NCBI GenBank assembly: GCA_963778155.1
Contig: CAVZTK010000021.1
Coordinates: forward strand, 1,366,369-1,430,368
DNA: 64,000 bases
Direction of reading: 5' to 3'
From: an uncultured Chloroflexia bacterium
GTDB lineage: Bacteria; Chloroflexota; Limnocylindria; Limnocylindrales; CSP1-4
Position numbers and translations under genes: made by a program. Position 1 is the first letter of the stretch; the number at the start of each line of letters is the position of its first letter. Shown here piece by piece: positions 59,127-62,558 of the stretch. The notes under the pieces are model-generated. The model saw nothing but the letters and a program-made list of their open reading frames with translations, was not told where the DNA came from and did no database searches.

Positions 59127-59240
59127 GGGCCGGGCAGCTCGGCGAGGCAGGCGCGCGCCCCAGATGTGACCGAACGGAAACCCTGGTCAGACTGCGGCCT
59201 CTTGCAGTGTGGGACGGCGAGACCTCACACTGCGGGAACC

Positions 59241-59312
59241 ATGATGTCGAGCTCGTGCGTGACGTGTTGCTGCCTCTGTCCCACTGCCATGCAGGGCAGG
59301 TGGTGTCGCTAG
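59241..59312 (+). CDS. Cys-rich leader peptide MMSSSCVTCCCLCPTAMQGRWCR (putative attenuator peptide)
   Basis: ATG 59241 to TAG 59310-59312; 6 Cys in 23 codons including CCC-L-C; followed by a terminator and then a sulfurtransferase gene. Confidence 0.8.
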   Translation: MMSSSCVTCCCLCPTAMQGRWCR

Positions 59313-59354
59313 GCGTGCGCTCATGATCCCGCGCACGCCCGGACCCTCACCCGA

Positions 59355-59382
59355 ACCCCTGCACCGGCAGGGGTCTTTTGTT
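59355..59382 (+). terminator. Attenuator intrinsic terminator
   Basis: ACCCCTGC-ACCG-GCAGGGGT 8-bp stem plus CTTTTGTT, about 35 nt upstream of the sulfurtransferase ATG. Confidence 0.8.
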
Positions 59383-59416
59383 ACCCGTCCGACCGCCACG
59401 ACCATGAGGACCACCG

Positions 59417-60727
59417 ATGACAACTCTCACGACCAGCGAGCTCCAGCGATCGTCTCGACGACCCGCAGCTCACGATCGTCGACATCCGCCCCCTCGCCGC
59501 CTACAACGGCTGGCGCCTGGGCGGTGAGGCGCGTGGCGGCCACATCCCGGGCGCGGTCGCGTTCCCGGCGGTGTGGCTGCACTCCGTCGACGAGCAGGAG
59601 GTCGGGCGCGCTGCTCGACGCCAAGCGGATCACCGCCGATCGCGAGATCGTCGTGTACGGCGCCGGGCCGGACGATGCCGCCGAGTTCGCGGCAGCCCTT
59701 CGGGCGCGCGGCCTCGAAGCCGTCCAGACGCTCGATGGTGGCGCCATGGCGTGGGCCGCCGACGAGACGCTGCCCCTCGAGCGTCTGCCCCGCTACGAGT
59801 CGCTCGTCCACATCCCGTGGCTCCGCGACGTGCTGGCCGGTCGCCGGCCGGAGGCGCCGCCCAACCCATCGTTCCTGCTCCTGCACGTCAACTTCGGGGT
59901 CCCCGAGGAGTACGCAGAGGGGCATATCCCCGGGGCGCACTACCTCGACACGAACTGGCTCGAGGATCCGGCCGACTGGAACCGCCGCTCGCCCGACGCG
60001 ATCGAGACGGCCCTGGCGGCACTCGGGATCACCCGCGACACCACGGTCGTGCTGTACGGCCGCGACACCGAGGGTGACGCGAACGAGAAGTGGCCGGGCC
60101 GACGGGCCGGCCAGATCGCGGCGACCAGGGCGCTCATGATCCTGCGCTACGCGGGCGTGGACGACGTCCGTCTGCTCGATGGCGGCTACGACTGGTGGGT
60201 CCAGGGCGGCAACCCGCGTCGAAACCACCGAGAACGTCCCGGTTCCGGTCGCCTCGTTCGGGGCCGCCGTCCCGGTCCGGCCCGAGGTCATCGTCGACAT
60301 CGACGAGGCCAAGGAGATCCTGGCCGACCACGAAGGGGCGGCGCTCGTCAGCGTCCGCACGTGGCGCGAGCACATCGGCAACGTCAGCGGCTACAACTAC
60401 ATCGGCCCGGCCGGACGGATCAAGGGCGACGTGTGGGGCAACTGCGGCACGGACGCCTACCACATGCAGCACTACCGGAACATCGACAACACGATGCGCG
60501 CCTACCCGGAGATCGCGGCCAACTGGGCCGAGGCCGGGATCACGCCCGACAAGTGGGTGGCCTTCTATTGCGGCACCGGCTGGCGGGCGAGCGAGACCTG
60601 GTTCTACGCCTACCTGCAGGGCTGGGAGCGGATCGCGGTCTACGACGGTGGCTGGTTCGAGTGGAGCCAGGACCCGATCAACAACCCGATCGAGATCGGC
60701 GAGCCCACCGACGAGGCGGCTGCCTGA
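59417..60727 (+). CDS. Three-domain rhodanese sulfurtransferase, YnjE-like (indels near 59450, 59605, 60215)
   Basis: GHIPGA twice, LLDGG, active-site loop FYCGTGWRASE as in YnjE, VYDGGWFEWS. Confidence 0.9.
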
Positions 60728-60918
60728 CCGCGATCTCGCGATGCGCCTGTGATGGTGTGCCGCGCGGTCGTCATCCCGGCGGCCGCCGGTCAGGCGCTAC
60801 AGTCGACCGGCTCGAAGGGGCCTCGAACATCGAGTGATCCGGTCGTTGTCTTGCAGTGACTGGAACAGCTCGTGATCGGTGGTTCCTTCGAGCGTTTCCG
60901 TTCCTGGTCCGTGCGCGA

Positions 60919-62431
60919 CTACGGGATGAGGACCTTGCTGAAGTTCGTCCCGTTGTAGCGGTTGAGGTCCACCCGACCGCTGATCCCCGGCACGACACCA
61001 TCCGAGGTGTACTGCCAGAACGTCCAGCCGTCGCCTCCCCAGTTGCCGCCCGGCACGGTGGGCCTGAGTGCCGACGTCCAGTGCGCCACCCAGAGCACGA
61101 TCGAAGCCGTTGAGCGAGAACCAGGTCGTGTCGCCCATGTAGTTCTTCCAGAAGCTCGGCGACACGTAGATCACGGCGTGGACCCCGGTCCGCTGCAGGA
61201 TCTCGCCCATGTAGGCCTGGACCCAGGCAGTCAGGGCGCCTGATGAGAGCCCGCCGCTCCGTTCGAGGTCGAGGACCGGCAGCAGGTCACCCTTGGCAGG
61301 CGCCGCGACGGCGATGAAGTGGTCGGCCTCGGCGACGGCGTCACCCGCGGTCGTGCTCGGCTGGGCGAAGTGATACGCGCCGACGTACGAGGCCGGCTGC
61401 GCGCGCCTGGGCCCGGTTCTGGGTGTACGACGGGATCGACGAAGTCGGTGCTCTCCGAGGCCTTGATGTAGGCGAACCGCTTGCCCGACGCGGCGACCTT
61501 GGTCCAGTCGATGGTGTTCTGCCAATGGCTGACGTCGATGCCCTCGGCGATCGTTGGGTGTCGGTGTGGGTGCGGCGTCGGGGTCGCCGTGGGCTTCGCG
61601 GTCGGCGTGGGCGTCGGCGTCGGTGTCGGTGACGGTGGGCGTGGGGGTCGGCTTCGCGTCGGCGTCGGGGTCGGCGTCGGCCGACGGCGTCGGGGTCGGC
61701 GTCGGGGTCGGGGTCGGCGTCGGCGCGGGCGTCGCTGGAGGCTGGGCTGCGGTCTCGACGCTCGGAGTCGTCTTGAACAGGCCGCTGGCCGCGTAGACGG
61801 ACGACACGCCGTAGAGCGAGCTGACGCTCACGCCGTTGATTGCGGTGATCCGGAACCAGCTCGCCCCGGCCACCGCCGCACCGGCGCATGTCGTGCTGGT
61901 AGCTCGACCCGGGGACGGAGGTGGCGACCGTGACGTTCGACGTCGGTCTTGATCATCGACTTGGCCGCGGTCGTCTGGGCGGGTCCGGTGCGGAGGTAGG
62001 TGCTGCAGGCGGTGTACCGCGTATACGGCGGCGCCGTCGACCGCCTTGAACAGGCCGGAGGCGGCGTACACGTAGCTCACGCCGTAGATGGACCGAACGC
62101 TCTTCCCGTTGATCGCGCTGATCCGCAGCCAGGTCGTGCCGTGCTTGGCGACGCCGGCGCACGTCGCACGCCAGCTGCCGCCGGTGACGGTCGCGGTGAC
62201 GGAGACCTTGGTGCCCTTCTTGACGATGACCCTGACGCGCGACGTCGTCGAATGGGTCGACCTGAGGTTCGCGCTGCAGAGGGCCACCTTGGTGGTGGCG
62301 GTTGCGCCGAGGACCTCGCCGGGCATCGACATCGAGCTGACGACGAAGCAGAACAGGGCAGCCATGACCGCCGCGGCGATGAGGGTGGTGCGCGAGGCGC
62401 GGGCGGCGTGACTGCTGGGCGCATGGGACAT
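60919..62431 (-). CDS. Secreted GH25 muramidase with two N-terminal Cys-containing repeats and a Pro/Thr linker (indels)
   Basis: Signal peptide; GIDVSHWQ, FAYIKASE, GAYHFA, PVLDLE, WTFWQYTS, VDLN. Confidence 0.88.
61555..61735 (-). repeat. Low-complexity (Pro-Thr)n coding repeat
   Basis: Tandem CCGACG/CCGACC hexamers on the minus strand. Confidence 0.85.
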
Positions 62432-62558
62432 GGCGGGCGAAACCTCAGTCTGGCAGGACCTAGAGGCTCGCGTAAACCCCCGTCCCGCGCTATGGCCCCA
62501 TGGGGCCAATCGTCACCGGCCCCGATGGGTCAGTGACCGTGGGACCGATGGACCCTGG

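Follow-up and report, generated by a model that had tools for sequence, protein, structure and literature searches.

A conserved cysteine-codon leader with an intrinsic terminator, probably a transcription attenuator, upstream of an EanB/YnjE-like sulfurtransferase gene in an uncultured Limnocylindrales bacterium

The window analysed here, a stretch of 64,000 nucleotides (nt) from an uncultured Chloroflexia bacterium of the order Limnocylindrales (assembly GCA_963778155.1, contig CAVZTK010000021.1), contains a gene for a three-domain rhodanese resembling the sulfurtransferases EanB and YnjE, preceded by a leader with a cysteine-rich upstream open reading frame (uORF) and an intrinsic terminator. 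Its upstream neighbour, a pirin gene, extends to 59126; the first position of the rhodanese is 59417. Leader and gene lie on the + strand, and all coordinates are positions of the whole window. The features of the locus are the following.

59202..59207, +: -35 box TTGCAG, read from the sequence; putative promoter element
59226..59231, +: -10 box CACACT, read from the sequence; the family consensus is (C/G)A(C/G)A(A/C)T
59241..59312, +: leader uORF of 23 codons from ATG 59241 to TAG 59310-59312, translated as MMSSSCVTCCCLCPTAMQGRWCR-stop
59265..59279, +: putative sensor codons Cys9-Cys10-Cys11-Leu12-Cys13, with the conserved Cys-x-Cys at 59271-59279
59281..59288, +: segment 1b, CCACTGCC, which can pair with segment 2 (early hairpin) or with the 3' arm of the terminator (antiterminator extension)
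59290..59306, +: segment 2, the 5' strand of the putative antiterminator, with the TGCAGGG core (59290-59296) plus CAGGTGGTGT; codes for QGRWC
59312..59339, +: nine-base-pair hairpin 59312-59320/59331-59339, from the stop codon onward and nested in the antiterminator; -18.5 kcal/mol
59355..59382, +: intrinsic terminator with stem 59355-59362/59367-59374 and a U-rich tail; -15.7 kcal/mol
59406..59410, +: Shine-Dalgarno-like GAGGA of the sulfurtransferase, read from the sequence
59417..60727, +: three-domain rhodanese (Pfam Rhodanese), an EanB/YnjE-like sulfurtransferase

A first-pass annotation of the window had proposed the promoter TTGCAG-N18-CACACT, the 23-codon uORF with six Cys codons, five of them in codons 6-13, the nine-base-pair hairpin and the terminator. 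All were recovered at the positions above, the boxes being 18 nt apart and the Cys codons, confirmed by sequence and translation, being codons 6, 9, 10, 11, 13 and 22. The terminator scan yielded one terminator, with a T-rich tail after its stem, versus 0.1 expected in shuffled sequences; its 5' arm doubles as the 3' strand of the antiterminator. An Rfam 15 scan returned no family at gathering score, the best match being SAM-IV on the opposite strand with 20.1 of 38 bits, and folding of the whole region was only modestly unusual (z -1.99). Cys-rich short ORFs are not diagnostic alone: 23 of 14,359 ATG-started ones in the genome have at least five Cys, and two of these correspond to the window uORF. 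The evidence that raises the uORF above chance is its conservation.

The same leader was found at 25 of 29 loci of the orthologous gene in the genus, and the Cys-codon uORF that relatives had been expected to share is kept in frame in 67 of the 69 distinct leaders that remained after removal of duplicates. These 67 form the base for most counts given below. All 69 sit directly before the same three-domain sulfurtransferase. A gapped pattern search of the genome collection retrieved 65 leader loci with the sulfurtransferase directly downstream in 65/65; according to the record titles, 60 are from Chloroflexota (18 from Candidatus Limnocylindrales) and five from elsewhere, namely L051, L052, L056, L068 and L086, from records titled Verrucomicrobiia, Patescibacteria, Deltaproteobacteria or Saccharimonadales, titles that may reflect wrong labels, wrong binning or gene transfer. 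A covariance model of the leader was searched over 121 genomes of the family, including one unpublished genome (G131). The gene is present in 28 of these, 26 of which have a model match with E<=2.2e-6 just upstream; no match at this threshold was found in any of the 121 family genomes lacking the gene, and weaker matches, with E from 2.4e-5 to 0.043, occurred in 18 further genomes. In a phylum sample of 401 genomes, the gene was found in six, three of these in one other family. The genome of the window contains no paralogues of the leader by motif or by covariance model (next match elsewhere with E 0.23). As to losses, L023 has kept promoter and terminator with the uORF absent, L142 has only a promoter-like box, and no leader of this kind precedes the sulfurtransferase at L169 and L170.

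Though a strict sigma-70 scan of the window leader called no promoter, a box similar to that of the window, TTG-N20/21-xAxxxT, was located by pattern before 69/69 leaders, with a spacer of 17 nt in 50 and of 18 nt in 19. The ATG lies 8-10 nt past the -10 box in 65/69, and a Shine-Dalgarno-like 4-mer precedes the uORF in 0/67 and the downstream gene in 64/67. Because of this position of the ATG and the lack of such a 4-mer, the uORF is probably leaderless or nearly so. When the start was chosen blind to frame, as the first ATG or GTG after the best promoter match, it was in frame with the conserved tail in 67/69, the two exceptions being off by one base; the other frames gave 1/67 each. Insertions and deletions between ATG and tail comprise whole codons in 67/69, the uORF spans 21-24 codons in 62/67, and in 4/67 leaders the frame continues for 4-6 codons past the usual stop.

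Inverted repeats were also observed around these promoters. In the window, the spacer region 59204-59233 is an inverted repeat (TGTGG-N12-TCACA inside a longer stem) and a possible operator; as the right half of the repeat coincides in part with the -10 box, it may be partly a by-product. A similar repeat lies 30-34 nt before the ATG in 11/69 leaders. A CCTAC-N7-GTAGG-like palindrome was seen 29-30 nt before the ATG in 7/69 (L013, L017, L019, L079, L084, L090 and L093), and TTGACT/AGTCAA-type repeats precede L169 and L170; these are reminiscent of operators of the Rrf2 family (IscR/CymR). A related perfect palindrome is found in the same genome before a DUF4395 gene (G000:C6:654832). A TCTCAC-N4-GTGAGA operator spotted by eye showed no enrichment over the control.

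The first-pass annotation placed the ribosome stall on Cys codons and counted six of them in the uORF. They are present in the window, but six is the maximum and occurs in 1/67; the number per leader ranges from 2 to 6 with a mode of 3, and the conserved element is a Cys-x-Cys pair, found in 61/67 with varying flanking residues. The Cys codons of the leaders are TGT in 179 cases versus TGC in 51, against a genome background in which TGT makes up 14% of Cys codons (782 long ORFs), and the second Cys of the pair is UGU in 62/63. In a set of 21 leaders, mostly from other genera and with six overlapping the 69, Cys-x-Cys occurs in 20 and QGRWC is intact in only eight. The QGRWC tail is conserved as nucleotides, with about one codon per position and exceptions that change the amino acid, and thus appears to be kept largely as RNA. 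In 74-77%, the two codons before Cys-x-Cys have the form pyrimidine-purine-pyrimidine (YRY) and code for His, Arg or Cys. They form a helix with segment 2, in which 87% of alignment cells are paired versus 29-56% when the strands are slid. In this helix, 8/9 pairs show pairing-neutral one-sided change, and its duplex energy is -11.95 versus -7.85 when shuffled (p<=0.05 in 31/61). The His runs and some of the extra Cys are therefore explained by RNA pairing; the second Cys of Cys-x-Cys lies outside this helix.

To these observations of sequence anatomy, gene linkage, conservation and codon bias, computed alternative folds and footprint geometry were added. The stop-codon hairpin is 94% paired, with 3/8 pairs changed on both sides, and the terminator stem is 97% paired, with 4/8 pairs that never vary. 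Taken together, these two helices have 95.6% of cells paired and four pairs with two-sided changes, a result reached by 5/500 shuffles. Of the 9 nt after the terminator stem, 6-8 are T in 60/67. The proposed forward pairing of TGCAGGG with 59357-59363 is intact in 99.5% of cells and almost invariant, and its extension from segment 1b to the terminator 3' arm is 87% paired over 68 distinct rows, without compensatory change. In the window, the antiterminator and terminator states are close in energy (-39.0 vs -37.4 kcal/mol). Back-pairing of segment 2 onto the Cys codons (59270-59279/59291-59299), also suggested earlier, is feasible at -11.9 kcal/mol, but it ties with a second early hairpin (59281-59288/59295-59303, -11.7 kcal/mol), and the homologues use another register.

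Footprint folding was performed on nascent RNA from which the terminator 3' arm had been omitted, with a ribosome covering the RNA from 15 nt upstream to 9 nt downstream of the A-site start (A+9). Naked nascent RNA forms the antiterminator with P>0.5 in 53/67 leaders; untranslated RNA is hence predicted to fold as the antiterminator, with the switch ON by default. When the A site is placed on codons -8 to -4 relative to the Q of the tail, the antiterminator exceeds P 0.5 in 60-64/67; at -3 it does so in 25, and from -2 to +5 in 0/67. The Cys-x-Cys pair lies at codons -8/-6 in 59/61, in the last part of the uORF over which segment 2 stays free.

We consider it probable that the leader is a transcription attenuator of the ribosome-mediated kind, near-leaderless and responsive to charged tRNA-Cys. 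For this mechanism, we infer transcription start, translation, stalling, ligand and termination in vivo as follows. The RNA would start a few bases before the uORF ATG, and the ribosome would load at its 5' end. With ample Cys-tRNA, the ribosome would pass Cys-x-Cys, move onto segment 2 at the QGRWC codons and mask it, which would leave the 5' arm of the terminator free; the terminator would then form and the RNA would end near 59380. With scarce Cys-tRNA, the ribosome would wait at UGU/UGC, the last codons that leave segment 2 exposed, and exposed segment 2 would pair with the 5' arm of the terminator, enclosing the stop-codon hairpin and allowing read-through into the sulfurtransferase. The switch would thus be ON by default and OFF through complete translation, and an untranslated uORF would lead to read-through instead of trp-like super-attenuation. 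Because the GAGGA of the sulfurtransferase lies outside the terminator, translational occlusion would not be needed at this locus. The central proposal of the first-pass annotation, that stalling on Cys codons frees segment 2 for read-through and that full translation ends in termination, is consistent with the conservation, the folding and the pathway-matched sister leaders described below.

A number of results weigh against this attenuator. The homologous leaders are related, so the counts are non-independent, and the antiterminator core shows no compensatory change because it hardly varies. When the full-length RNA was folded at equilibrium with a larger footprint (A+12), the antiterminator exceeded P 0.5 in only 34/67 at -8 (first Cys) and 17/67 at -6 (second Cys); in the window, its probability was 0.14 at Cys11 and 0.01 at Cys13, with 0.79-1.0 at Cys9/10. 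Folding with a ribosome footprint, put forward earlier as a check, thus agrees with the model for nascent RNA and A+9 but only in part for full-length RNA and A+12, and the outcome appears in these models to depend on footprint size and co-transcriptional order. As to the codons, 19 of the 21 extra upstream Cys occupy the two codons of the helix with segment 2, and the first Cys of the Cys-x-Cys fits this pairing too. Met is enriched as well (63 of 1509 internal codons) and is the x of Cys-x-Cys in 28/61, so the signal may be Cys plus Met. The penultimate residue is a UGU Cys in 66/67 and is encoded within segment 2; stalling at this site would promote termination. This codon, which is lost in 2/21 leaders of the set mostly from other genera, may prolong masking or be a by-product of pairing. 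Within the same genome, no Cys uORF was called within 450 nt before ten PALP-family and two cysS-family loci. Finally, the RNA runs examined were uninformative, giving small shares on relatives' contigs and neither strand nor ends.

Sister leaders were sought in the same genome by a scan for promoter, short ORF and terminator, which picked out 68 short ORFs, three of them in leaders that have a terminator: the Cys leader, a Lys leader before dapB-dapA, and a Met leader before a gene that Pfam assigns to a Cys/Met pyridoxal-phosphate enzyme and that we presumptively label metY. The Lys leader (L173; G000:C19, uORF 236478, +) is a candidate lysine attenuator with a promoter-proximal 26-codon uORF, three Lys codons and a terminator. 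The Met leader (L172; G000:C6, uORF 490956, +) is built on the same RNA scaffold and is a candidate methionine attenuator, with a GTG-started 23-codon uORF, Met-Cys-Met and a terminator. Among relatives, at least two Lys occur within three codons at 27/30 dapB loci, the other three being cut short, and Met-x-Met occurs at 25/30 metY-like loci, with x being Cys in 16. Because Lys precedes dapB-dapA, Met the metY-like gene and Cys the sulfurtransferase, the sensor codons appear to follow the pathway of the downstream gene, which provides a pathway-matched control. In footprint folds, the terminator of the Lys leader was partly opened at two Lys codons (P 0.58-0.66) and also at three later positions (0.66-0.74), and that of the Met leader was not opened at all, which leaves the geometry of the sister leaders unconfirmed.

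Four loci (L026, L027, L029 and L148) carry the Lys/Met-type scaffold before the sulfurtransferase instead, with Cys in 4/4 and a terminator visible in three, suggestive of a swap of the regulatory module before the same gene. Three unrelated leaders place Cys codons before the sulfurtransferase. At L171, in another Chloroflexota family, a 14-codon uORF ends in Cys-x-Cys, and its codons are predicted to fold onto the ribosome-binding site. No terminator was seen at this locus, which possibly has a translational version like mycobacterial Ms5788A.

Other explanations of the leader were weighed against attenuation by charged tRNA-Cys. It might instead be a general sensor of translation that reports the initiation or pace of ribosomes, for example under oxidative or starvation stress, with the Cys codons as slow codons or by-products of pairing. 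Naked RNA forms the antiterminator in 53/67, so any failure of translation would give read-through, and UGY is one of the four YRY codon classes permitted by pairing between segments 1 and 2. The second Cys, however, is nearly invariant although it lies outside that helix, unrelated leaders before the same gene also bear Cys, and the sister leaders bear Lys or Met matching their pathways, all of which makes a general coupling sensor improbable. An RNA-only switch, either a new riboswitch or a T-box-like element, with an incidental ORF would fit the conservation of segment 2 at the nucleotide level and its passing likeness to a T-box motif. It is highly improbable given that no Rfam family matches at gathering score, that the 5' third is unconserved, without stem I or aptamer, and that ATG, frame and stop are kept, with whole-codon indels in 67/69. 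Identity as a T-box was rejected, as there is no conserved 5' stem.

Sensing of the nascent peptide, the remaining alternative, would have a Cys-x-Cys/His-rich peptide in the ribosome tunnel bind some ligand, such as a metal or a persulfide, with arrest at QGRWC-stop masking segment 2 in the manner of CruR, CutF or TnaC. The Cys-x-Cys plus a conserved terminal WC and the His runs of many homologues (107 His in 500 upstream codons) speak for it, as does the copper sensing of CruR via a CXXC motif in its uORF, as described in PMC9426467. We nevertheless regard it as quite improbable. An arrest sensor of the CruR, CutF or TnaC type would be expected to conserve a C-terminal arrest motif at the amino-acid level, whereas here the tail varies freely in other genera and the position of the stop varies too, being overrun by 4-6 codons in 4/67. 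The tail is almost without synonymous change yet tolerates R to K, G or W, as expected of an RNA constraint, and His, Arg and Cys replace one another within the YRY class of codons, which keeps the pairing to segment 2. A peptide ligand would also leave the preference for UGU over UGC unexplained, and no metal genes were found among the 27 neighbour proteins scanned.

The regulated gene itself is interrupted in the window. Compared with an intact orthologue of 435 residues (L002), it is spread over three frames, with shifts near 59420-59450, 59600 and 60210-60250, and the pieces are 81-96% identical to that orthologue. Because the frame is open in most relatives, assembly errors are likely, with a pseudogene as the alternative. 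An opposite-strand GH25/SH3 gene (60797-62500) also looks frame-shifted, likewise the genes at L172 and L173, and the assembly seems rich in indel errors. Among the 27 neighbour proteins scanned, the commonest same-strand downstream genes encode Gfo/Idh oxidoreductases (five) and major facilitator superfamily transporters (four); the neighbours vary, so there is no fixed operon.

The first-pass annotation labelled the protein YnjE-like, but EanB-type structures score higher: the best Protein Data Bank (PDB) matches of the intact orthologue are 6h98/6ktv with 401 bits, compared with 311 bits for YnjE. We take 6h98/6ktv to be Chlorobium limicola EanB; the PDB titles say only 'Sulfurtransferase'. 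Alignment to these entries showed that the residues equivalent to EanB Tyr353, Cys412, Thr414 and Arg417 are kept and that the Tyr/Cys/Arg spacing matches, and variant PDB entries alter the equivalent Tyr and the Thr after the Cys. Tyr353, Cys412 and Arg417 are named as EanB residues in PMC10903977. A search of 81 family genomes, which are incomplete, yielded no full-length EanA/EgtD, and PF10017 gave only partial matches, of at most about 110 of 304 positions, in 9/81; synthesis of ergothioneine from histidine is therefore unlikely for this sulfurtransferase. Many EanB-like enzymes are without known function, according to PMC9516567. An enzyme induced by Cys shortage would more plausibly gather sulfur than spend it. 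A bolder proposal, which we rate as rather unlikely, is that the orphan EanB-like enzyme, induced when cysteine is short, acts as a scavenger that removes sulfur from ergothioneine or related thiones in the environment and feeds it into the persulfide/cysteine pool, and that the leader belongs to a lineage-wide set of leaderless, default-ON attenuators (Cys, Lys, Met) standing in for riboswitches.

A literature search, mostly without subscription journals, found no description of the element or of attenuation in this lineage. Attenuation as a principle is textbook matter; for this leader family and the gene it targets, that search gave no earlier account. With the classical attenuators (trpL, hisL, leuL, thrL and pheL; summarised in 10.1101/834739), the leader shares a short, here conserved, uORF with regulatory codons, an intrinsic terminator, and an exclusive antiterminator that uses the terminator 5' arm; its sensor codons lie just outside the footprint over segment 2 in the folds of nascent RNA with A+9. 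It differs from them in its Cys sensor, the lack of a Shine-Dalgarno sequence before the uORF, the nested stop-codon hairpin, the predicted default-ON fold, and a target that is a sulfurtransferase, presumably linked to Cys metabolism, rather than a biosynthetic operon. As for the protein, EanB and YnjE share three rhodanese domains with the regulated gene product, and the EanB catalytic residues are kept; unlike for EanB, no full-length EanA/EgtD was found alongside in the 81 genomes.

The first-pass annotation knew of no Cys attenuator with an intrinsic terminator upstream of a YnjE-type gene or in this lineage. One has been predicted upstream of cysS in Rhodobacterales: uORFC-8-2 combines a pair of conserved Cys codons with an intrinsic terminator and was proposed to allow read-through upon Cys-tRNA shortage (Brewer et al. 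2021, PMC8632094). None was found before a gene of the present kind. As far as its description goes, uORFC-8-2 is the nearest precedent for the combination of a predicted Cys uORF and an intrinsic terminator, and it differs in phylum, in its target and in having tandem Cys with UGC dominant, in contrast to the Cys-x-Cys with UGU dominant found here. Actinobacterial cys/cbs leader peptides likewise are Cys-codon ORFs before cysteine genes, but were reported without conserved terminator hairpins, and Rho-dependent termination was proposed for them (Seliverstov et al. 2005, PMC1262725). CruR (PMC9426467) and CutF (PMC9973294) are described as metal-sensing uORFs, a mode against which the variable tail and the codon bias argue here.

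The mycobacterial leaderless poly-Cys short ORFs (Ms5788A, the 'Cys ribulon') are attenuators whose response to Cys was shown experimentally, and one controls an operon that includes the thiosulfate sulfurtransferase cysA2 (10.1101/834739); in PMC13236596, the mycobacterial Cys leaders are treated as translational. Cys codons and a sulfurtransferase target are common to them and the present leader, and so, probably, is a leaderless or nearly leaderless uORF. The mycobacterial leaders, however, hide the Shine-Dalgarno sequence and have consecutive Cys near the stop, whereas the present leader has an intrinsic terminator and Cys codons that are spaced as Cys-x-Cys. With the terminator between uORF and gene and the Cys codons pairing with segment 2, it falls outside the mycobacterial translational class. 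Within the literature searched, the proven Cys attenuators are translational (mycobacteria) and the case with a terminator is a prediction (cysS, Rhodobacterales). Beside these, the present family offers about 80 natural variants and would provide a physiological trigger for a widespread EanB/YnjE-like enzyme; with its Lys and Met sisters, it points to control of amino-acid genes by leaderless uORFs in an abundant family of uncultured Chloroflexota.

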